A model generated the notes under the pieces. The model saw nothing but the letters and a program-made list of their open reading frames with translations, had not been told where the DNA came from and made no database searches. 64,000 nt of DNA from an uncultured Verrucomicrobiae bacterium (lineage in GTDB: Bacteria; Verrucomicrobiota; Verrucomicrobiia; JADLBR01; CALLMV01). Within the stretch, counting starts at the first letter, position 1; each line of letters begins with the position of its first letter. A program made the position numbers and the translations under genes. The DNA is taken from NCBI GenBank assembly GCA_938005615.1, contig CALLMV010000026.1, positions 143 through 64,142 of the forward strand, in the 5' to 3' direction. Below are positions 6,632 to 35,626 of this stretch, in pieces.

Positions 6632-6810
6632 TGAATAATTTAGCACGAGTCTGGTTTCCGCGCCTTCTTTGCTTCGTCTTGGCATTTGCGTTCTGGTATG
6701 CGGTGAAAAGTGATCTGGGCAAGAATAGAGATTTTTTCCTGTTTGAGTGGAAAAAATTTATTGATAGCAAATCCCAAAGTTCCCGCCTGATGGATACTCC
6801 TTCTGGCTGA
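6631..6810 (+). CDS. small predicted membrane protein (59 aa) in the position normally occupied by cdaR
   Basis: Hand translation gives MNNLARVWFPRLLCFVLAFAFWYAVKSDLGKNRDFFLFEWKKFIDSKSQSSRLMDTPSG. The ATG overlaps the cdaA stop by 1 nt (TAATG). One hydrophobic helix. It is below the ORF-track size cutoff. Coding status unproven. Confidence 0.35.
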   Translation: MNNLARVWFPRLLCFVLAFAFWYAVKSDLGKNRDFFLFEWKKFIDSKSQSSRLMDTPSG

Positions 6811-6849
6811 GAAAGACTACGGATGAGAGTTTTGTGAATTACTGCTCCG

Positions 6850-8199
6850 ATGAAATACTTTGGTACTGATGGAATTCGAGGTCGGGCTGGAGAGTTTCCG
6901 CTTCTGCCTGATTTTCTCCAGAATCTTGGCAGGGTAGCAGCAGAATCTCTTGCGCCCGCTGGTAAGGATTGCCGAGTACTGATCGGTCGGGATACAAGAG
7001 AATCAGGTCAATGGATATTTTTGGAATTATGCGCTGGTCTACAGCAGCGTGGATGCGTAGTATTTGATGCGGGTGTTCTGCCAACAGCAGCTCTTTCCGC
7101 AGGGACTCGGGCAGGAGGATTTGCATTCGGTATCATGATCACGGCCTCCCATAATCCTTGGGATGACAATGGAGTGAAGTTTTTTAGAAGTGACGGTTAC
7201 AAGTTATCAGAGCAGCAGGAGAAACTTATCGAGAGGATGATTCAGGAAGGTTTTCAGCAAAATCCTTCATTCTCTCCTAGCCGTATTGTGCAAGAAGCAG
7301 AATTTTGGCCGGAAGCGCGGGCGGTTTATAGTAAAAGAGTATTGCAGATGCTTGGGGGGAAAGGACTTGCAGGTCTGAGTGTTGTCGTGGATTGTGCAAA
7401 TGGCGCAGCTTCCGATTATGCACCTTGGCTGCTTAGGGAATGCGACGCCTCTGTTTTCGCAATTCACAACAAACCAGATGGTCGAAACATCAATAGCAGT
7501 TGTGGTTCTCTGTACCCTCAAGATTGTATGAGGCAAGTCTTGGAACGCAGAGCAGACCTCGGTATTTGTTTGGATGGCGATGCGGATCGTGTCACGCTGG
7601 TTGATGAAAAAGGTTCTTTGCTCGATGGAGACGACATACTCGCTCTGCTGGCTGCAGATATGCATAGACGGGGGGAATTACACGGTGGCAAGGTTGTGGC
7701 AACTGTACTTTCCAACCTTGGTTTAGACGATCATTTAGCCAAGTTGGGATTGACGGTTGTACGCACTGCCGTAGGAGATGCACACGTGATTCGGGCGATG
7801 CAGGAGCACGGTTCTTGCCTCGGCGGTGAACAATCAGGACACATTGTCGTTGGAACTCATTCCACCACAGGCGATGGTCTGATGACTGCAGTGTGTGTGT
7901 TGCGATCTATGGCGGCTTATCAAAAAAGTCTTTCCGAACTTCGGACTTCTTTTCGGAAGTATCCTCAAAAAATGTTTAACATTGCAGTGCGTTACAAACA
8001 TCCGATCAATTCGCTTGGATTAGTGAGCAACGAATTGAAGACTTTGGAGCAAAAACTAAACGGATGTGGTCGTGTTTTGTTACGATACTCTGGAACAGAG
8101 CCTAAGATTAGGTTGTTAATTGAGGCGCCTTCAGGGATGGATCTCGACTCTTTGGCTGCCCCGTTGATTCAGGCGATTCATGCAGAAATCGGTGCGTGA
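6850..8199 (+). CDS. glmM: phosphoglucosamine mutase
   Basis: MKYFGTDGIRG start, active-site TASHNPWDDNGVKFF, DGDADR metal loop, GGEQSGH, RYSGTEPKIRLLIE. Confidence 0.95.
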   Translation: MKYFGTDGIRGRAGEFPLLPDFLQNLGRVAAESLAPAGKDCRVLIGRDTRESGQWIFLELCAGLQQRGCVVFDAGVLPTAALSAGTRAGGFAFGIMITASHNPWDDNGVKFFRSDGYKLSEQQEKLIERMIQEGFQQNPSFSPSRIVQEAEFWPEARAVYSKRVLQMLGGKGLAGLSVVVDCANGAASDYAPWLLRECDASVFAIHNKPDGRNINSSCGSLYPQDCMRQVLERRADLGICLDGDADRVTLVDEKGSLLDGDDILALLAADMHRRGELHGGKVVATVLSNLGLDDHLAKLGLTVVRTAVGDAHVIRAMQEHGSCLGGEQSGHIVVGTHSTTGDGLMTAVCVLRSMAAYQKSLSELRTSFRKYPQKMFNIAVRYKHPINSLGLVSNELKTLEQKLNGCGRVLLRYSGTEPKIRLLIEAPSGMDLDSLAAPLIQAIHAEIGA

Positions 8200-10236: not shown

Positions 10237-10935
10237 TCAGTTGTTCTTGGTTGGCAGGAAGTGCCGAAATTGCAAGCTACCGCGTTTGAGGCTACCGGCA
10301 TTGCCTCCGAGATAAAGCACTGTGGTGCGATTTTGAGTGGGATAACCAGGCCAGCCAACAGTGCTTGTTGTGGGTATAGCATCATCTAGGGAGACGCTGG
10401 GTGTAACGCTCATGAGCTCTGATGGGTTTGATAGTATGGGATTGACTCTCATGTAATTGCTACTGTCTGGTACCCCAACACAGAGGAGAATAATTTCCGA
10501 AGCTCGCTGCACAGAAGAGACACGCACGCGCTGAGCAGGATCTTCATGACCAAGTCGGCCATGCATGGCGTAGCTGATGTTTACAGATTGTGAGGCGTTG
10601 GGTGTTGCAGTGATTTGAGGCATACACGGAGATATATAAATGCTATTCCTGACAGGTGATGCATTTGTGTTTAAATAGGGAGCTAGGAAGTGTGTGTAAT
10701 TTTGTTGAGTCGTAGAATCGTAAGCCGGTGGAAGGAGTCCGCTGTTTTCGTTTGCGTGAGCTGTCATGCCCACGCCGATCTGCTTAAGGTTGGCGACGCA
10801 CTTGGCGATTCTCCCACTTTCCAAAGCGTTGTTGAGAGAGGGTATCCCAATAGCGGCGAGTAAGCCTATGATGGCTACAACTACAAGCATCTCGATAAGC
10901 GTAAAAGCGGCATAAGCAGTGATTTTTTGTTGCAT
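10237..10935 (-). CDS. prepilin-type N-terminal cleavage/methylation domain protein (pseudopilin-like, DUF1559-type)
   Basis: From the ATG at 10935 the protein reads MQQKITAYAAFTLIEMLVVVAIIGLLAAIGIPS, the classic type IV pilin-like leader and hydrophobic helix. The C-terminal end resembles the family abundant in Verrucomicrobia and Planctomycetes. Confidence 0.8.
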   Translation of the reverse strand: MQQKITAYAAFTLIEMLVVVAIIGLLAAIGIPSLNNALESGRIAKCVANLKQIGVGMTAHANENSGLLPPAYDSTTQQNYTHFLAPYLNTNASPVRNSIYISPCMPQITATPNASQSVNISYAMHGRLGHEDPAQRVRVSSVQRASEIILLCVGVPDSSNYMRVNPILSNPSELMSVTPSVSLDDAIPTTSTVGWPGYPTQNRTTVLYLGGNAGSLKRGSLQFRHFLPTKNN

Positions 10936-11090
10936 GGGGTGAACTGGCCACGAGTTAAAAGATTGACAATCCAATTTGTTGTGAATTTTTTGTCACATTC
11001 TTTTGTGTTCATCTAATGTGGCGCTAAGTCCAGAAAAACATCAACAGGCGCAGACGCATGATGTGAAAAGATCGAAAGCTTTTGCGTTTT

Positions 11091-15184: not shown

Positions 15185-16645
15185 TCACAGATTAATATCT
15201 AGCCGTGTGTCTCCACGAAGAGTACTGGCCAGCCACTCCGAAAGTACCTGATCACGAGCCTGGCGATAAAGCTTCTCGCGGATGCTTGCCCTTACACTTT
15301 CAGGCTCTTCTGCGGGCTTGCGGTCCTTCAGATAGATCAGCTTGACTTTATCATCGAAAGGTTGGGGTTGACTCACTTCGCCCAGCGACAGAAAGGAAAC
15401 ACTGTTTGCAAAACGAATTTGCGTAATGTCGGCGCTGTCCATGGCTTCGCTGACAACCAAGCGTGGAAGATCATTGACTTGCAGCCCTTGTGCCTCTGCT
15501 GCCTCACGAAAGCTTTTGCCTTCGGACATTGTGGCGACAATTTTTTCGCGCAACTCCCTGGCTTTGATGAAGGTTCGTGACAGTGACTGCTGACGCAGGT
15601 GTTCAACTTTGAGTTGTTCTCGGGATTGTTCGTAGGTTAGTTGTTCACGACCGCCAGTTTCTTTAAGTCGCGCAATGAAGAACGCGGTTTTGCCTTCGAT
15701 CGCATTGCTGTCGGGTGATTCTTTGGTAAGGTTAAATCCAGCTTGAGCAATGGCTGCTAAATCTTCATCGGAGTCTTGGTCATTGAGTTTGAGTGGACCT
15801 AAATGCTCGACGACGAGATTGGCGTTTTGTGCAACAGTTGCAAAATCCGGCACAGGTTTGCCCGCATCATCAAGCAGCGTGATAGAAAAGTTGACCGCCT
15901 TGTCTCGAGCATCGAGTCGGCTAAGCGGATCCTCCGGATCGAAGGTAAACCTTACCACTTCGAATATCCTGGTTTCTGGGGACAGGAGTTGCTCTTTGCG
16001 CGACTCGTAGATCGGGCGAAGTATATCATCTAGGCCCTCGGGCTCCTGTTCCACCACATCCAAAGGAATTTCGACGAGCTCAAGTGAGCAAATACCATAG
16101 TTTCTAGAGAGCTGCTCCTCGACGGTTTTTTCGTCGATAAAAATTCCAGTGGTCAAGACCTCGATTGCCCGTTGTATGCGAAGGTCATTGCGCATCATTT
16201 GCTCAAAATCCCGATAGCTAATACCCAGAGAGGGCAGAAGTCCCTGGCGAAAATTGTTAAAAATGACTGGATTGAAGTTCCCTTCAGTCAAGAAGGGGGG
16301 AAACTGAAGGATGGATTTTTCCAGTTCTTCAGATGAAACGTTGATCCGGAGCCTGTCCGCTTCGTTCAGAAGCAACAGCCTATGCCACGCCCTGTCGCGT
16401 ACTGTTCTTTCCGCTTCAGCTCCTTGGGCAACGCGACCCTCGCTTAGGAAGTATCCCAGCTCTGCCTCTCGAAGGGAGGTCAAGAAGGTTTTTTGGTCGA
16501 GTGGTCTTCCCTCGATTCTTCCGACTATCACACCAGTCACTGGAGCTGTGGGAGTGAAGTCGCCCCAGAATGCAAATGAAACAACAACAACTAATACTAT
16601 TATCCAGAGTACCGGTTTAGAAGCATGTCTTATCCATTCGATCAT
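15185..16645 (-). CDS. PpiD/SurA-like periplasmic chaperone with N-terminal membrane anchor and degenerate parvulin-like domain
   Basis: N-terminal TM helix (VLWIIVLVVVVSFAFWG) and a SurA-N-like helical region. A C-terminal segment (KSFREAAEAQGL...LGEVSQPQPFDDKVKLIYLKDRK) resembles a parvulin fold without clear catalytic residues. Confidence 0.65.
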   Translation of the reverse strand: MIEWIRHASKPVLWIIVLVVVVSFAFWGDFTPTAPVTGVIVGRIEGRPLDQKTFLTSLREAELGYFLSEGRVAQGAEAERTVRDRAWHRLLLLNEADRLRINVSSEELEKSILQFPPFLTEGNFNPVIFNNFRQGLLPSLGISYRDFEQMMRNDLRIQRAIEVLTTGIFIDEKTVEEQLSRNYGICSLELVEIPLDVVEQEPEGLDDILRPIYESRKEQLLSPETRIFEVVRFTFDPEDPLSRLDARDKAVNFSITLLDDAGKPVPDFATVAQNANLVVEHLGPLKLNDQDSDEDLAAIAQAGFNLTKESPDSNAIEGKTAFFIARLKETGGREQLTYEQSREQLKVEHLRQQSLSRTFIKARELREKIVATMSEGKSFREAAEAQGLQVNDLPRLVVSEAMDSADITQIRFANSVSFLSLGEVSQPQPFDDKVKLIYLKDRKPAEEPESVRASIREKLYRQARDQVLSEWLASTLRGDTRLDINL

Positions 16646-16730
16646 AAGTTATCTTTCTAATCCGTAGTTAATAAGCTTTTGGTGAGATAAGACTGTTGAC
16701 ATGGCAGAGGTTGTTTCGCAGTATTTGAGT

Positions 16731-17489
16731 ATGCAATTTTTACGACGCATCATAAGCCTTTTGTGTTCGCTTCTGTTAGCCACACAATGGTTGCTGTCGC
16801 AAGATAAAATCATCAGCCGTCGTGGAGCCGAAGAACGCATCACCACAGGTCAAATCTTGGGCACCACAGCGGATGGCGCCCCGAGAATTCGCCTGGCGGA
16901 TGGTAACATTACAGTCGTCCAGATCAGTGAAGTCGTTTCCATTGAGAAGGAAGAATCTCCTGAAATCCGCACCGCACGCGAAGCTTTCGCTAAAGGAAAC
17001 TACGAAGAAGCAATTATTGCTGCACAAAAAATCGCGGATCAATTTCCAGGTTTGCCTGTGGCTTGGGTTGTTGAAGCGTTTGGCATCGTTGCAGATTCAC
17101 ACCTTGCTCTCAAACAAATAGACCGCGCTTCAGAGTGGTACCAAAAGATTCGATCAGCTTACTCTGCAACCCAGTTTGCAGTCAAAGCAGACATCGGCAG
17201 TGCCAAGATTGCAAAACTTAACGGCAAGATGGAAGATGCGGAAAAAGCTTTGTCCGAGATCATCCAGCGTGCCAGATCTACCCTCAGACCGACCCCGACC
17301 GAGAGCCAGGTTTTTGCCGATGCCTTTTTTCTGCACGGAGAGATTCTCGAACAAAAAGAACAATTCAATGAAGCATTAGCTAGTTTTTTAAGCATCCCTG
17401 CGCTTTATCCTGAAAACCCGACTCTTGTTAACCGCGCCCTTCAACGGGCAGAAATCCTTTCCACCCGGCATAAAGCCGTGGTGAATTAA
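16731..17489 (+). CDS. secreted TPR-repeat protein
   Basis: Signal peptide MQFLRRIISLLCSLLLATQWLLSQ (ATG at 16731; the track start is 16701). Followed by TPR-like helical repeats (AREAFAKGNYEEAI..., ASEWYQKI..., FLHGEILEQKEQFNEAL). Confidence 0.7.
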   Translation: MQFLRRIISLLCSLLLATQWLLSQDKIISRRGAEERITTGQILGTTADGAPRIRLADGNITVVQISEVVSIEKEESPEIRTAREAFAKGNYEEAIIAAQKIADQFPGLPVAWVVEAFGIVADSHLALKQIDRASEWYQKIRSAYSATQFAVKADIGSAKIAKLNGKMEDAEKALSEIIQRARSTLRPTPTESQVFADAFFLHGEILEQKEQFNEALASFLSIPALYPENPTLVNRALQRAEILSTRHKAVVN

Positions 17490-17507: not shown

Positions 17508-18317
17508 ATGAAAAACAAAACACTCATAACACTTGTTCTAATCACTGTCACAACACTCTTCGCCTCGCAAGGGCTACTGGCACAAGACCCGGCCAAGGAG
17601 ACGACCTTTGCAGACATCTTCATGAAGGGATGGCAAACATTTACTGCACTAACAATTGCCTCCATTTTGATGGTTTACTTCATCATAGATGGATTCCTTA
17701 AACTGAAGGTATCTAAAATGGCGCCGCCAGCCTTTGTAGCTAAAGCCAAGGAGCTTGTACGCCTAGGAAGCTACCAAGATCTCTGGGAGTACTGCCGCAC
17801 TAACGTCTGCTTCATCTCACACATCCTTCAAGCAGGGCTCGAGAGAATAGGTCGAGGTCGCGATGCCACTGAGGCAATGATGGCAGAAGTAGCCACAAAA
17901 GAAGCTGCAAAAGTCAAAGAAAATATGACATACCTTTCAGTTATCGGAGTCATCGCACCAATGATCGGACTGACGGGCACAGTCGTCGGAATGATTGATG
18001 CATTCAAATCTCTTGGTACCGATGGAGATCCTACCGGACTCTCCGCGGCTATATCTAAGGTGCTTTATGCCACGGCAGGCGGCCTGATTGTTGCAGTTCC
18101 TGCATTCGTCTTCTATTATTACTTCCGCAACCGCGCACAAAGTTGTATCCTCGAAGCTCAAAACATCATCAACCGCATTGTTGACGAGATCCCCTTTGAA
18201 GAACTTTCCGGACTACGCGTAGGGGAACTGGCTGCGGATAGCGCAACACCTGTTTCCCAAGATACACCAGCAGCCCCGCCTGCCTCAGAAAATCCTTGGG
18301 GTGCAGCCACAGCCTAA
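17508..18317 (+). CDS. exbB: MotA/TolQ/ExbB proton-channel family protein
   Basis: Signal-like N-terminus, then three TM helices with the family core (LSVIGVIAPMIGLTGTVVGMIDAF...ISKVLYATAGGLIVAVPAFVFYYYF). Confidence 0.9.
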   Translation: MKNKTLITLVLITVTTLFASQGLLAQDPAKETTFADIFMKGWQTFTALTIASILMVYFIIDGFLKLKVSKMAPPAFVAKAKELVRLGSYQDLWEYCRTNVCFISHILQAGLERIGRGRDATEAMMAEVATKEAAKVKENMTYLSVIGVIAPMIGLTGTVVGMIDAFKSLGTDGDPTGLSAAISKVLYATAGGLIVAVPAFVFYYYFRNRAQSCILEAQNIINRIVDEIPFEELSGLRVGELAADSATPVSQDTPAAPPASENPWGAATA

Positions 18318-18358: not shown

Positions 18359-18850
18359 ATGGGGCACAGCGTCAAACAGCTCAAAAAAGAAGTCCTCAAG
18401 AAATCCACTGAGGAATCAGAGGAGCCGGAATTCCAGATAGCACCTATGATTGACGTGCTGCTCGTGCTCCTGATGTTTTTCATGGCAAACATCACTCTGG
18501 AAAGCCGTGCAAAAATCAAACTCGAGTTGGCAGACGCAACCAATCCCAACGCCACGAAAAAGGACGTTAACCTTGGAGAGGCGATCATAAACATCAAGCT
18601 CGACGAAAATACCAGAATGGTGCAGCTTTTTATCGGCGAATTTCCCACAGAACTCAACAGCCTACCCTCAATACTCGAAGGTCGGCGCAATGATCACCTT
18701 TCCCTCAACCCCAATGGTACCTTCCGAGTCATCATCCGTGCAGATAAAAACGTCGAATACCGCGAGGTAAACGCTGTCATGCGCCAATGTGCACTCGCAA
18801 ACATTCCCAACGTCGTGTTCTCCGTCGTAGAACCTAAAGGAGGCGCATAA
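18359..18850 (+). CDS. exbD: ExbD/TolR family protein
   Basis: PEFQIAPMIDVLLVLLMFFM (the conserved Asp-containing TM helix) plus a periplasmic domain (VIIRADKNVEYREVNAVM). ATG at 18359. Confidence 0.85.
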   Translation: MGHSVKQLKKEVLKKSTEESEEPEFQIAPMIDVLLVLLMFFMANITLESRAKIKLELADATNPNATKKDVNLGEAIINIKLDENTRMVQLFIGEFPTELNSLPSILEGRRNDHLSLNPNGTFRVIIRADKNVEYREVNAVMRQCALANIPNVVFSVVEPKGGA

Positions 18851-19331: not shown

Positions 19332-20582
19332 ATGCTGATCAAAATCAGAAATTTCGCCTCGAAAATAGTCGCCGCGCGCAACTTTGCGATATCAGTTGTT
19401 ATACACGTGGTATTGCTCGTGTTTTTATTTAGCGTCGTCGTTTACGAGGCAGTCCAACGCACCCAAGAATTTCAAACAACACTCATTTTGGGCGATGGGT
19501 TTGGCGGAGGCGGTGAGCCTCCCCCGCCCCCCTCAATGCCAGTCGATGCTCCTGATATGCAGGACTTGCAAGTCTTCTCCAGCGACGTCCCGCTTACAGA
19601 TCTTTTGACCGTTGATTCAGCCAGCGCGATCTCCTTCAACATCGCACCGCCCGTCATTCCCCCGCCTGATGCGATTCGCTCAGCAACAGCCGCAAACACT
19701 TCACCCACACTTTCTACTCCCAGCACCTCAGCGGGCATTTCTCGTGAACGTGCCAGCATGATTCGCGGGATGACTCAGGAATGGTTCCAGGGGCGCGGCA
19801 CCGGCAGCGGGGGCGCGCGCGGTATCGTGGCAGAATTTCCTATTTACGTAGGACGTACCGAGGCACCGGGCAGCGCGGCATTCGTCAGAATCAACCCACA
19901 AAACAACAGAGTCATCGGAGGTAGTGTACCTAATCTTGCTGAGATGATCCGCTTTATGTCAAACGGCCGCATCAAACCTCTAATTCAAGGCGAAATGATT
20001 CGCCTCTCTAGTGATGAGATTTTTAAGAAAAAACCTCCGTTTATTTTCCTCACCGGCCGAGGGGACTTCAAACTTACAGAGCAAGAAGTCAAAAACATGC
20101 AAGACTACCTCCTCATGGGAGGCTGCATCTGGGGTGATGCCGCCCTGCCAGGGCGCGGATCGAGCTTCGATATCGCCTTCCGCCGCGAGATGCGCCGCAT
20201 CGTGGGAGAAGGAGTCGACTTCCGGCCCCTGCCGCCCAACCATCCTGTGTATTCTAGCCAGTTCTTCCGCATGACGGGGCCTCCCGCTGGCATTAACTTT
20301 AAGCGTGAACCTGTGGAATCTCTCACTATTGATGGCATTGAGGCCGTCATCTACACAATGAACGGTTACGGTGCGATGTGGCAAATCATGCTGCGCGAAA
20401 ATGACTTTAACTCCATTGATACGACAGTGATGATCGCAAGCGATTCTGAATTTTGGGCTCGCAGAAATACCATATTCAGAAACTTAGACGAAAAAAGTCT
20501 TTTGGCCAGCTACCAACTCGGCATTAACATGGTGGCCTATTTGCTCACCAGATTTGAAAGTGCTCTACGATTCGCAAGGTAG
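19332..20582 (+). CDS. TonB-like membrane anchor with Pro-rich spacer, fused to a DUF4159-like C-terminal domain
   Basis: TM helix ISVVIHVVLLVFLF carries the S-x-x-x-H motif (compare E. coli TonB LSVCIH), followed by GGGGEPPPPPSMPVDAPD and PPVIPPPD. The C-terminal 200 aa or so (PPFIFLTGRGDFKLTEQEVKNMQDYLLMGGCIWGDA, NHPVYSSQFF, GINMVAYLLT) matches DUF4159 as I remember it. I see no TonB C-terminal domain. Confidence 0.65.
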   Translation: MLIKIRNFASKIVAARNFAISVVIHVVLLVFLFSVVVYEAVQRTQEFQTTLILGDGFGGGGEPPPPPSMPVDAPDMQDLQVFSSDVPLTDLLTVDSASAISFNIAPPVIPPPDAIRSATAANTSPTLSTPSTSAGISRERASMIRGMTQEWFQGRGTGSGGARGIVAEFPIYVGRTEAPGSAAFVRINPQNNRVIGGSVPNLAEMIRFMSNGRIKPLIQGEMIRLSSDEIFKKKPPFIFLTGRGDFKLTEQEVKNMQDYLLMGGCIWGDAALPGRGSSFDIAFRREMRRIVGEGVDFRPLPPNHPVYSSQFFRMTGPPAGINFKREPVESLTIDGIEAVIYTMNGYGAMWQIMLRENDFNSIDTTVMIASDSEFWARRNTIFRNLDEKSLLASYQLGINMVAYLLTRFESALRFAR

Positions 20583-32585: not shown

Positions 32586-32891
32586 TCAGCGGCAGGGTAA
32601 ATGTTGGAGAAGCGTTGTGAGGCTAGCTCCTGAGATTATGGCGGTTTTGTGCGGGGAGGCGGTGCCGGCGGTGATGGTGATGGCGGATTCGCGGAGGTGA
32701 AGGGTTTGGGCGAGCAGGTGGATGATGGCGAGGTTGGCCTGGCCAGCCTGTGCTGGGGCGGTGACGCGGATTTTGAGCGCGTCGCCGAGCCAGCCGGAGA
32801 TTTCGTCGCGGGAGGCACCGGGGACGGCTTTGATTTTGAGTGTCTAAGTCGGAGGTGTGGCGGGCGGGTTATGGGACGAGGCTTTGGCCAT
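32586..32891 (-). pseudogene. DUF167/YggU family gene interrupted by one in-frame TAG (codon 16)
   Basis: Hand translation gives MAKASSHNPPATPPT*TLKIKAVPGASRDEISGWLGDALKIRVTAPAQAGQANLAIIHLLAQTLHLRESAITITAGTASPHKTAIISGASLTTLLQHLPCR. The core (L.I.V.PGA.RD.I.G...D.LK..V.APP..G.AN) is the YggU pattern. The TAG is the complement of 32844-32846. There is no ATG, GTG or TTG in frame after it, which is why the ORF track misses it. Confidence 0.6.
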
Positions 32892-32902
32892 CGGGGGAGG
32901 GG

Positions 32903-35527
32903 TTAGGTGACGAGGTTAACGAGTTTGTCGGGCACGACGATGATTTTTTTGGGGGAGGCGCCGGCGAGGAGTTTGCGCACGGTGTCGTGGACGAGGACGC
33001 GGCTGGTGATGGAGTCGCGACCCAGGCCGCGGGGCAGGTCGAGGTGGCCGCGGACTTTGCCGTTGATTTGGATGACGATCTGGACGGTGTCGTCGGTGAG
33101 CCAACGGGTGTCGGGCTGGGGCCAGGGGTGGCTGGCGAGGGAGGTGGTGTGGCCGAGGAGTTGCCAGAATTCTTCGGCGATGTGCGGAGCGAATGGGGAG
33201 AGGATGAGGGTGAAGATTTCGGCGTGCGTGCGGGGCAGGGGGGCGCCTGTGGCAGTGTGTTTGGTGTAGTGGTTGACCCATTCCATGAGGGCACTGAGGG
33301 CGGTGTTGAAGCGGAGGGCTTCGATGTCGTCGGTGACTTTTTTGAGTGTGCGGTGGGTGATTTTTTGGCAGTCGGCGGGCGGGTCGGGGATGTCGCGGAT
33401 GTGGTCGGCGAGGCGGTAGTGGAGTTCGTTGTGCGGGTCGGTGTGAACGATGAGGCGCCAGGCGCGGGCGAGGAAGCGGTGGATGCCTTCGACGCCAGCG
33501 GTGCTCCAGGGTTTGGTTTGCTCCAGAGGGCCCATGAACATTTCGAAGCAGCGGAGGGAGTCGGCGCCGTAGTGGCGGATGACGTCGTCGGGATTGATGA
33601 CGTTGCCGAGGGATTTAGACATTTTTTGGCCGTCTTCGCCAAGGATGAGGCCTTGGTTGACGAGGCGCTGGAAGGGCTCGGGGGTGGAGAGGTGGCCGAG
33701 GTCGTAAAGGACTTTGTGCCAGAATCGTGCGTAGAGGAGGTGGAGGACGGCGTGTTCGGTGCCGCCGATGTAGAGGTCCACGCCGCCGGGGGTGCCAGAG
33801 GAGGCGAGCCAGTAGCGTTCTTTTTCCGGATCGAGAAAGGCGCGGTCGTTGTGGGGGTCGAGGTAGCGGAGGTAATACCAGCAGGAGCCGGCCCATTGGG
33901 GCATGGTGTTGGTCTCGCGGGTGTAGCCGGGGACTTCGCGGAGCCAGTCGGTGGCTTTGGCGAGGGGGCCGCGGGGGTCGCCGGTGGGGCGGAAGTCGTC
34001 GAGCTCGGGCTGGAGGAGGGGGAGTTGGTCTTCGGGGAGGGGATGGTGTTGGCCTTGGGCGTCCCAGAGGATGGGGAAGGGTTCGCCCCAGTAGCGTTGG
34101 CGGGAGAAGAGCCAATCGCGGAGTTTGTATTGGGTGCGTGGCTGGCCTTTGCCGTGGTCTTGGAGCCAGCGGGTGATGGTTTCTTTAGCCTGGGGTGTGG
34201 GGAGGCCGTCGAGGAATTGGGAGTTGATGGCGATGCCGTCGTCTTCGAAGGGGAGGGGGAAGTCGTTGTTGGGTGAAGTGCTCGATGGGGCGACGACGGG
34301 GAGGATGGGGAGGTGGTATTTGGTGGCGAAGGCGTGGTCGCGCGCGTCGTGGGCGGGGACGGCCATGATGGCACCAGTGCCGTAGCCCATGAGGACGTAG
34401 TCGGCTATCCAGAGGGGAATGGGAGCTCCGGTGACGGGGTGAAGGGCATGCGTGCCGAGGGGGACGCCGGTTTTTTCTTTGGCGAGGTCGGTGCGTTCCA
34501 GGTCGGTCTTGCGGGCGCAAGCTTCGCGGTAGGCGGTGACGGCCGGGCGCTGGTCCGGGGTGGTGAGTTGATCAACAAGGGGGTGTTCGGGGGAGAGGAC
34601 CATGTAAGTGACGCCAAAGAGCGTGTCGGGACGGGTGGTGAAGACGGTGAGGGTGTGGCCGCCGGGGAGGGGGAAGTGGATGTCGGCGCCTTGGCTGCGG
34701 CCAATCCAGTTGCGTTGGAGGAGTTTGATGGATTCGGGCCAGTCGAGTTGATCGAGGTCGCTCAAAAGGCGTTCGGCGTAGGCGGTGATGCGGAGCATCC
34801 ATTGTTTGAGGGGGCGGCGGATGACTTCGTGGCCTTTGGCGCGCCATTCTTCGACTTCTTCGTTGGCGAGGACGGTGCCGAGGTCGGGGGACCAGTTGAC
34901 GGTGGCTTCGGCAACGTAAGCAAGGCGGCGGGCGTCGATTTCCTGACGGGAGAGGCCGGCTTGTTGGAGTTCGGAGATGGGGCGGGCGCGTTGGGTTTTT
35001 TCGCAGAAGTAGGAGTTGTAGATTTGGAGGAAGATCCATTGGGTCCAGCGGACGTAGGTGGGGTCGGTGGTGTTGATTTCGCGGTTCCAATCGTAGGAGA
35101 AGCCGAGGGCTTGGAGTTGGGTGCGGAAGGTGGCGATGTTGTGTTCGGTGGTGATGCGGGGGTGTTGGCCAGTCTTGATGGCGTATTGCTCGGCGGGCAG
35201 GCCAAAGGCGTCCCAGCCCATGGGGTGGAGGACGTTTTTGCCGAGCATGCGATGGTAGCGGGCAAGGATGTCGGTGGCGGTGTAGCCTTCGGGGTGGCCG
35301 ACGTGGAGGCCAGCTCCGGAGGGGTAGGGGAACATGTCGAGGATGTAGTATTTTGGGTGGGTAGGGTCGAAGCCAGGGTCGCCTGGGCCGGGGGTGCGAA
35401 ATGTGGCGTGTTGTTGCCAGTAGGCCTGCCATTTGGGTTCGATGGTCGGGAAGGGGTAGGCGCGGCGGGCAGGGATGTTTGGCGGGGGGTTCTCTGAAAT
35501 AGGCGCGGATTGTGTAGTGTCGGGCAT
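32903..35527 (-). CDS. leuS: leucine--tRNA ligase
   Basis: 874 aa from the ATG at 35527. Motifs: [16 protein letters not shown] (HIGH), the CP1 editing region, QKMSKSLGN (KMSKS), and a typical LeuS C-terminal domain. Confidence 0.95.
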
Positions 35528-35626
35528 GGTATTTTTCGTTGTGGGTATGGTGTTATGAAAAATTGGGCTGCGTTGCAACAGGGGAGCGCGTTTAGAGAGC
35601 TAAGCGGGGGCTAGGAGGTGGACTTT

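Follow-up and report, generated by a model that had tools for sequence, protein, structure and literature searches.

What does a gene in the place of tonB encode when its product carries no TonB head, and what might the motor encoded beside it then act upon? The question is raised by a 64,000-nt stretch of DNA from an uncultured Verrucomicrobiae bacterium (contig CALLMV010000026.1 of assembly GCA_938005615.1; hereafter the window, meaning this whole stretch). The window contains six plus-strand genes separated by intergenic gaps of only 1–45 nt, which encode, in order, a tetratricopeptide repeat (TPR) protein, an ExbB/TolQ-type protein, two ExbD proteins, a DUF4159 protein and an FG-GAP propeller protein. 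We think it rather probable that the DUF4159 protein, the product of the fifth gene, is a periplasmic force transducer in the style of TonB and TolA, which has a DUF4159 head instead of a receptor-binding head and works with the FG-GAP propeller. We therefore refer to it below as the transducer, and to the six genes as the cassette.

The open reading frame (ORF) at 19332–20582 (+) encodes a bitopic protein of 416 aa. Translation confirmed its limits and the positions of Ser21 (codon at nt 19392–19394) and His25 (codon at nt 19404–19406), as given in the original prediction, which had been made from the sequence and its reading frames only. The GGGGEPPPPPS and PPVIPPPD stretches and the three C-terminal blocks quoted there are likewise all present. 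The protein is made up of the following parts:

19374..19448 (+): transmembrane (TM) anchor helix, about residues 15–39, with S21, H25 and L32
19473..19811 (+): disordered linker rich in Gly, Pro, Ser, Thr and Ala, about residues 48–160, with 15 Pro in 113 residues
19824..20579 (+): globular alpha/beta head, DUF4159 (PF13709), about residues 165–416, related to the class-I glutamine-amidotransferase fold

In the AlphaFold2 (AF2) model, which was built from an alignment of 29 sequences, residues 2–48 form an N-terminal helix with predicted local distance difference test (pLDDT) values of 83–94. Basic residues (K4, R6, K11 and R16) precede the helix, which indicates that the N-terminus lies inside and the C-terminus outside, the topology of TonB and TolA. 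When the anchor helix ISVVIHVVLLVFL is aligned with the corresponding helices ISAVLHVILFAAL of TolA and LSVCIHGAVVAGL of TonB (E. coli sequences from NC_000913), S21, H25 and L32 fall on S16, H20 and L27 of TonB and on S18, H22 and L29 of TolA, that is, on the S-x3-H-x6-L register of the SHLS motif. Conservation was counted in 96 copies from fetched loci and, separately, in an alignment of 29 homologues. The TM His is kept in 96/96 and 29/29 of these, respectively, and in almost all of about 80 full-length representatives at 50% identity. The position four residues before it is less constrained, being Ser in 84 and Ala in 12 of the 96 copies, and it is Ala in nine of the 10 motor-linked copies. 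The SxxxH signature on which the original prediction was built thus stands with respect to its His and its register, but not with respect to its Ser, and as the Ser is not invariant we take the His, rather than SxxxH, to be the meaningful signature.

The linker is modelled with pLDDT below 50 over residues 48–61, 70–134 and 150–164. Its length is constrained within the family, ranging from 100 to 129 residues with a median of 112, and its median Pro fraction is 0.13. The window protein resembles TonB (E. coli b1252) in its N-in TM helix with the S-x3-H-x6-L register, in having about 100 residues of Pro-rich linker and in its slot after exbB-exbD(-exbD); exbB-exbD-exbD followed by tonB is a common layout of Ton operons. 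The likeness of the two anchors is, however, not statistically significant. The window protein differs from TonB in that it has no TonB_C domain (PF03544), neither by hidden Markov model (HMM) nor by fold, and in that no TonB-dependent receptor was found nearby.

The C-terminal part had been suspected to be DUF4159 and not a TonB C-terminal domain, and both suspicions were correct. PF13709 is the single Pfam match of the whole protein (E 1.2e-21; 77.7 bits against a gathering cutoff of 25.9; residues 198–405), and the C-terminal piece alone scores 79.6 bits. The TonB_C (PF03544), TolA_C, TonB_2 and von Willebrand factor type A (vWA) models gave no match at E<=1 with the whole protein, or at E<=10 when the two halves were scanned separately, and a Foldseek search with the window model returned no TonB or TolA domain, and no vWA domain among the top 50 matches. 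The head is modelled with pLDDT of about 80–95 over residues 165–416, and against the Protein Data Bank (PDB) it has one significant Foldseek match, 4i66 (E 1.1e-9, probability 1.00, TM-score 0.79 normalised to the target), which is also found by sequence (E 8e-5 with the single protein and 1.7e-10 with a profile). This structure is Hoch_4089 of Haliangium ochraceum, a DUF4159 protein that belongs to the same family by HMM and by fold and shares the motifs PPF.f.tG..dF, GG.iw.D and FD.afRRE with the window protein. Its chain has about 200 residues, to which the window protein adds the His anchor, the linker, a beta-rich N-terminal extension of the head (residues 165–197) and the motor operon. 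The weaker Foldseek matches are class-I glutamine-amidotransferase-like and flavodoxin-like folds, the former with E values of at least 0.017. We considered whether the head is a class-I glutamine-amidotransferase enzyme and rejected this, as Cys265, which corresponds to the nucleophile of the amidotransferases, is variable (56 Cys, 39 Ala and one Val among the 96 copies), and this excludes the class-I mechanism.

We found essentially no literature on DUF4159, the sole mention found being in a Pfam database paper. Without the anchor described here, the domain is also present in secreted proteins with a length near 500 aa, in very large multidomain proteins and in fusions with a zf-HC2 anti-sigma-like domain. 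The proteins of about 500 aa (P0332, P0333, P0348–P0350, P0360, P0362, P0364 and P0365 among our representatives) make up a subfamily of their own, in which a signal peptide takes the place of the His anchor; they share the motif GE.FPPLPLP.TPLRRSEKKRPP and have the DUF4159-like domain at the C-terminus. In P0309 (1107 aa) and P0310 (1307 aa), a zf-HC2 anti-sigma-factor-like N-terminus (MNCHEIQDLL...C..C) is followed by a region that matches both the linker and the DUF4159 head of the transducer family, and these fusions suggest that the head may also serve as a periplasmic sensor domain. The occurrence of DUF4159 without the anchor fits a periplasmic recognition module.

The other products of the cassette, together with one segment of the FG-GAP protein that is discussed below, are encoded as follows:

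16701..17489 (+): gene 1, exported TPR protein (signal peptide, small beta-rich region at the N-terminus, TPR-like helices)
17508..18317 (+): gene 2, proton-channel (stator) subunit of the ExbB/TolQ type, PF01618 (MotA_ExbB) at 92.4 bits
18359..18850 (+): gene 3, ExbD/TolR-type subunit 1, PF02472 at 78.4 bits
18852..19286 (+): gene 4, ExbD/TolR-type subunit 2, a heterologous paralogue of gene 3, PF02472 at 73 bits
20586..22238 (+): gene 6, exported FG-GAP beta-propeller protein, FG-GAP_3 at 87.6 bits and FG-GAP at 47.8 bits
20664..20744 (+): conserved segment NLFPRGDFSQVTTVDNLWDGVNRNNQI, residues 27–53 of the FG-GAP protein, at the mature N-terminus just after the predicted signal peptide

The transducer gene had been placed in the tonB slot, and this placement is borne out: one MotA_ExbB gene and two ExbD genes lie upstream of it, and the arrangement is conserved in 11 loci across deep divergence. 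In 10 loci besides the window the gene directly follows exbB-exbD-exbD, and the full cassette is present with identical gene order in all 11 distinct loci (the window, which corresponds to L081, and L001–L004, L011/L087, L024, L083, L086, L089 and L093). They include a protein with 35% identity to that of the window (L083) and a very divergent member (L089). In a neighbour-joining tree of the head domain the motor-linked copies occupy the deepest branches, so motor linkage looks ancestral. No other candidate transducer is encoded in any of the 11 cassettes. Both ExbD subunits carry the Asp typical of ExbD/TolR in their TM segments (APMIDVLLVLL in subunit 1 and APMLDVMFVLL in subunit 2). For gene 3 the mechanically called ORF begins at 18296 with TTG, whereas the public gene call (L081) begins at 18359 and gives 163 aa. 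In L093 the first ExbD of the cassette (6801–7550) is an enlarged protein of 249 aa, with a weak N-terminal match to GYF_2. The TPR gene, whose product matched several TPR models of Pfam, takes the first position in every full cassette found.

In all full cassettes the FG-GAP gene comes immediately after the DUF4159 gene. It holds the same place in nine loci without a motor, which belong to a single clade (L025, L036, L043, L046, L061, L069, L071, L079 and L084); in this clade, which includes the cultured Chthoniobacter flavus Ellin428, the pairing of DUF4159 and FG-GAP genes outlasts the linkage to the motor. We regard the FG-GAP protein as the putative partner of the DUF4159 head. Its C-terminal domain of about 170 residues was matched by no Pfam model. 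Before the first FG-GAP repeat, the segment at residues 27–53 has the 80% consensus N...NGDF.......NLW.GV.....L among 20 orthologues, and we speculate that the DUF4159 head could recognise this NGDF...NLWDGVD segment as a "box"; the segment could instead be part of the closure of the propeller.

The idea of a TonB/TolA-like transducer with a non-TonB head is not new. Section 8 of a recent study describes such transducers with a vWA head in bacteria of the Planctomycetota–Verrucomicrobiota–Chlamydiota (PVC) group (Williams-Jones et al., Mol Biol Evol 2025; PMC12204202). As described there, a disordered linker of about 100 residues joins the TM helix of these proteins, with the SHLS motif and its His, to a non-TonB head, and their genes lie downstream of TPR-tolQ-tolR-tolR; in the AlphaFold3 models of that section, the His-bearing TM helix docks on the motor at the site used by TonB and TolA (PMC12204202). 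We rebuilt the seed protein of Tichowtungia aerotolerans from the supplement of this study and examined it by Pfam, BLASTP, hhalign, a homologue search, AF2 and Foldseek. The hypothesis that the vWA and DUF4159 transducers are one family was rejected, as anchor and motor are all that they have in common. The Tichowtungia transducer had no match to the Pfam model of DUF4159, PF13709 was found in none of its 107 relatives, and these relatives do not overlap with the family of the window protein. By BLASTP and hhalign, the window and Tichowtungia transducers align only over the TM helix and the juxtamembrane stretch (39 columns, E 2.6e-5), and hhalign of head against head gave no similarity. The AF2 model of the Tichowtungia protein matches genuine vWA domains in Foldseek (ITIH1, BatB 3ibs, alpha2-delta and CLCA1). 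The motors, on the other hand, pair reciprocally, with 34% identity for ExbB, the first ExbD matching the first and the second matching the second (36% identity), and the TPR protein of the window aligns end to end with a 262-aa protein upstream of the Tichowtungia motor.

The vWA system thus shares with that of the window the His anchor, the disordered linker of about 100 residues, a head that is not that of TonB and the layout of TPR, ExbB and two ExbD genes. It differs in that the Tichowtungia locus (L088) reads TPR(s)-ExbB-ExbD-ExbD-vWA-vWA, with two tandem transducers and no FG-GAP gene, whereas the cassette of the window has one transducer with a DUF4159 head and an FG-GAP propeller. Since only anchor and motor are related, we describe the two cassettes as a related motor and anchor with different heads and different partners. 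The same anchor, juxtamembrane motif and motor layout combined with another head in Kiritimatiellales is the pattern that would be expected of a modular motor-coupling anchor. The original prediction knew of no characterised example of its architecture; it is right that neither family has been characterised experimentally, but the sister architecture with a vWA head had been described computationally in 2025, in the section cited above. What is new here is the DUF4159 head and its FG-GAP partner. Some of the "Verrucomicrobia" examples in Fig. 4a of that study might be DUF4159 proteins labelled as vWA.

All 120 listed homologues of the transducer carry DUF4159 (PF13709) and are about 420 aa long, and those that are named all come from Verrucomicrobiota. 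In a scan of species-representative genomes, 319 stretches encode a relative, of which the best 80 of 319 are all from Verrucomicrobiota. A profile search of 1.84 billion representatives gave 2161 matches at E<=1e-3 and 136 at E<=1e-30. In Chthoniobacterales/Terrimicrobiaceae the anchored DUF4159 gene is unlinked to a motor and has multiplied, often into tandem pairs. Tandem paralogues with no motor or FG-GAP gene nearby were seen in L008, L014, L016–L018, L026, L028, L034, L042 and L058. Around the unlinked paralogues no other recurrent neighbours were found beyond the synteny of the lineage (e.g. a HerA-like ATPase and DnaE). In one locus of the Chthoniobacterales type (L076, 3595–5378), a canonical TonB_C gene followed by ExbB lies 2.5 kb upstream of a member of the DUF4159 family. 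We judge this proximity to be coincidental, because a methylmalonyl-CoA mutase gene on the opposite strand lies in between; a canonical TonB and the DUF4159 transducer family do, however, coexist in at least one genome.

Upstream of the cassette and divergent from it lies a gene for a periplasmic chaperone:

15185..16645 (-): SurA/PpiD-like periplasmic chaperone with an N-terminal TM segment, matched by SurA_N_3 (80 bits), SurA_N_2 and Rotamase_2 of Pfam

In most cassette loci of the Verrucomicrobiales type a SurA-like homologue keeps this divergent position (L001–L004, L011, L024, L086, L087 and L093), but not in L083; the gene is thus a conserved neighbour and only possibly a component of the system. 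Downstream of the cassette lies rpoN, and more generally the cassette is syntenic with housekeeping and envelope genes, e.g. the SurA-like gene, ksgA and rpoN. A scan of the cassette for promoters and terminators gave nothing above the expectation from shuffled sequence, and neither tRNA nor Rfam matches were found in the window. Elsewhere in the window, 10237–10974 (-) encodes a small protein whose N-terminus bears a methylation motif of the prepilin type (PF07963), and a similar gene lies near the cassette of L093. At 32840–35578 long ORFs on both strands overlap; the minus-strand ORF encodes a leucyl-tRNA synthetase, and the plus-strand ORFs, which have no Pfam match, are probably shadow ORFs.

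How might such a system work? We infer that the TM helix of the transducer couples to the motor and that its head binds the FG-GAP protein. In the inner membrane, the ExbB/TolQ-like protein would assemble with both of the ExbD/TolR-like proteins, which differ from each other, into a stator complex driven by protons, and the TM helix of the transducer would dock on the outside of this complex via the invariant His. The linker of about 110 residues would span the periplasm, so that the DUF4159 head could engage the exported FG-GAP protein, possibly at its N-terminal NGDF...NLWDGVD segment. In this way, proton flow would be used to pull on or to remodel the outer part of the envelope, and the exported TPR protein may serve as a scaffold in the periplasm, much as CpoB serves Tol-Pal.

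Several observations weigh against a force transducer. About 70 of the 96 homologues, all from Chthoniobacterales/Terrimicrobiaceae, adjoin no ExbB or ExbD gene. The original prediction had itself named unlinked orthologues as evidence against it, and its expectation of linkage to exbBD is met by the 11 loci but not by these copies, in which coupling would have to take place in trans; the coupling of E. coli TonB to its motor is likewise in trans with respect to the gene. In a few distant full-length representatives (P0252, P0266, P0271 and P0282) Gln or Tyr replaces the TM His. The homology of the anchor to TonB and TolA cannot be claimed statistically, as a profile of the anchor alone, built from the DUF4159 and vWA families, found no TonB or TolA among all PDB chains and returned generic TM helices (Vpu) only; the N-terminal 156 residues alone also had no Pfam match, even at E<=10. 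With a helix as short as about 20 residues, the lack of a significant match is hardly surprising. In the head, about 25 positions do not vary, and many of these are polar; they include N201, E252, W267, D269, D280, R285, E286, N322, Y341, N344, Y346 and N399, and H304 is His in 95 of 96 copies. Such positions point to a conserved binding or catalytic surface, and they are also compatible with an enzymatic or ligand-binding role. As DUF4159 is also present in non-anchored proteins, the domain itself is not specific to force transduction. Finally, no TolB-family or Pal/OmpA-like gene was found in or beside the cassettes inspected, nor any gene for a TonB-dependent receptor in them.

Within the reading as a force transducer, we favor a Tol-type role in envelope maintenance or in a surface-associated process over a TonB-type gating of outer-membrane transporters. 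This preference is based on the models that match best, although all of them below their cutoffs, on the synteny with housekeeping genes and on the lack of a TonB-dependent receptor nearby. Among the NCBIfam models, TolQ and TolR outscore ExbB and ExbD for the motor proteins, all below the curated cutoffs; the ExbB-type protein scores 74 bits with TolQ and 53 bits with ExbB, and it has 31% identity to E. coli TolQ. The TPR protein matches tol_pal_ybgF with 43 bits (E 5e-11) under a cutoff of 90, which amounts to a weak similarity to CpoB/YbgF, and some of its homologues bear the Joint Genome Institute (JGI) product name "TolA-binding protein". The only NCBIfam match of the transducer is a faint one of its N-terminus to that of TolA (tolA_full, E 0.12).

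The same matches raise the question of whether the protein is simply the functional TolA of a divergent Tol-Pal-like system, in which the FG-GAP protein would have the role of TolB and the TPR protein that of CpoB, and which would tether or constrict the outer membrane at division. This would be a specific version of the transducer reading and does not contradict it. Its likeness to TolA (E. coli b0739) consists in a similar anchor, in motor proteins that score best with TolQ and TolR, in a CpoB/YbgF-like TPR protein and in a propeller gene next door. TolB is a propeller protein, so that the propeller and TPR genes of the cassette parallel TolB and CpoB of Tol-Pal, and a cassette that is widespread and syntenic with housekeeping and envelope genes would suit a core envelope function. 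CpoB is a TPR protein that is encoded next to most tol-pal loci, according to the section cited above (PMC12204202). However, the Tol-type matches all stay below their curated cutoffs, and the window protein has neither domain III of TolA, by HMM or by fold, nor the helical domain II. The FG-GAP repeats are of another family than the propeller of TolB, and no TolB N-terminal domain was found. No Pal/OmpA-like lipoprotein is encoded in or beside the cassette, and two heterologous ExbD/TolR genes are atypical for tol-pal. In addition, the supplement of the 2025 study gives separate tolB-pal loci in other PVC lineages (PMC12204202). Taken with these differences, we consider a true Tol-Pal equivalent unlikely, though it is the best of the alternatives.

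A second alternative is that the protein replaces TonB in nutrient uptake, such that the head and the FG-GAP protein, the latter with a possible carbohydrate-binding C-terminal domain, would energise the import or capture of glycans across the outer membrane, in the manner of the "selfish" uptake of polysaccharides by Verrucomicrobia; the cassette might then be a counterpart of loci like MUL1 in Akkermansia. The transducer gene does take the tonB slot behind exbB-exbD-exbD, and FG-GAP propellers of bacteria often go together with proteins that act on polysaccharides. Verrucomicrobiota are known to accumulate periplasmic glycans, and mucin uptake by Akkermansia needs the mul genes, which are described as encoding "pili and periplasmic protein complexes" (PMC13174399, PMC12418764). 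Yet a receptor gene of the TonB-dependent type is missing from every cassette inspected, and with no TonB_C domain the known beta-strand exchange with TonB boxes is unavailable. The canonical TonB_C protein encoded next to ExbB in a genome that also has a member of the family (L076) argues in the same direction. As for the link to Akkermansia, cluster look-ups returned only Methylacidiphilales and unclassified Verrucomicrobiota, none of the 19 matches of the TPR-profile search was an Akkermansia protein, and the MUL1 synteny is absent from aquatic Akkermansiaceae (PMC13174399), unlike the widely conserved cassette. We find a role in glycan uptake distinctly improbable.

Least of all do we believe that the protein is uncoupled from the motor, as a membrane-tethered periplasmic enzyme or binder whose TM His serves e.g. 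oligomerisation and which is co-transcribed with a motor that has its transducer elsewhere: most homologues are indeed unlinked to any motor, the invariant polar head residues (D269, D280, R285, E286, H304, N322, N344 and Y346 among them) would suit a catalytic or ligand site, DUF4159 occurs in non-anchored architectures and the similarity of the anchor to TonB and TolA is not significant. It would, however, be hard to account in any other way for a His that never varies at the TonB/TolA register of a single-pass helix; moreover, the family keeps its linker length, the head lacks the nucleophile of class-I amidotransferases, the 11 cassettes offer no other transducer and the anchor is reused in Kiritimatiellales, so that this view is very improbable.

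Returning to the DUF4159 protein as a force transducer, a bolder form of this reading can be put forward tentatively. The transducer and the FG-GAP protein could belong to a distinct, ancestral and Verrucomicrobiota-wide proton-powered envelope machine that stands apart from Ton, Tol-Pal and the vWA system. The head would in that case pull on the "box" of the propeller as TolA pulls on TolB, and the paralogues of Chthoniobacterales would be interchangeable transducers on one motor, like multiple TonBs. DUF4159 would thereby gain its first function, and the 5:2 motors would be seen to accept swappable heads (TonB_C, TolA domain III, vWA and DUF4159) on one conserved His-bearing anchor. We regard this as possible, but clearly less likely than force transduction as such.

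To our knowledge, TonB and TolA were long the sole known routes from motors of the ExbBD/TolQR type to the outer envelope. The vWA domain was proposed in the 2025 study as a third type of head, and DUF4159 would be the fourth, on a related anchor and motor and with a dedicated propeller partner. If our reading is correct, the His-bearing anchor would be a portable motor-coupling module. It would also provide the first mechanistic context for DUF4159, which has 2161 representative clusters at E<=1e-3. For the Verrucomicrobiota, a phylum that is important in soil, water and the gut, it would mean that an energy-dependent process of the envelope has so far gone unexplored.

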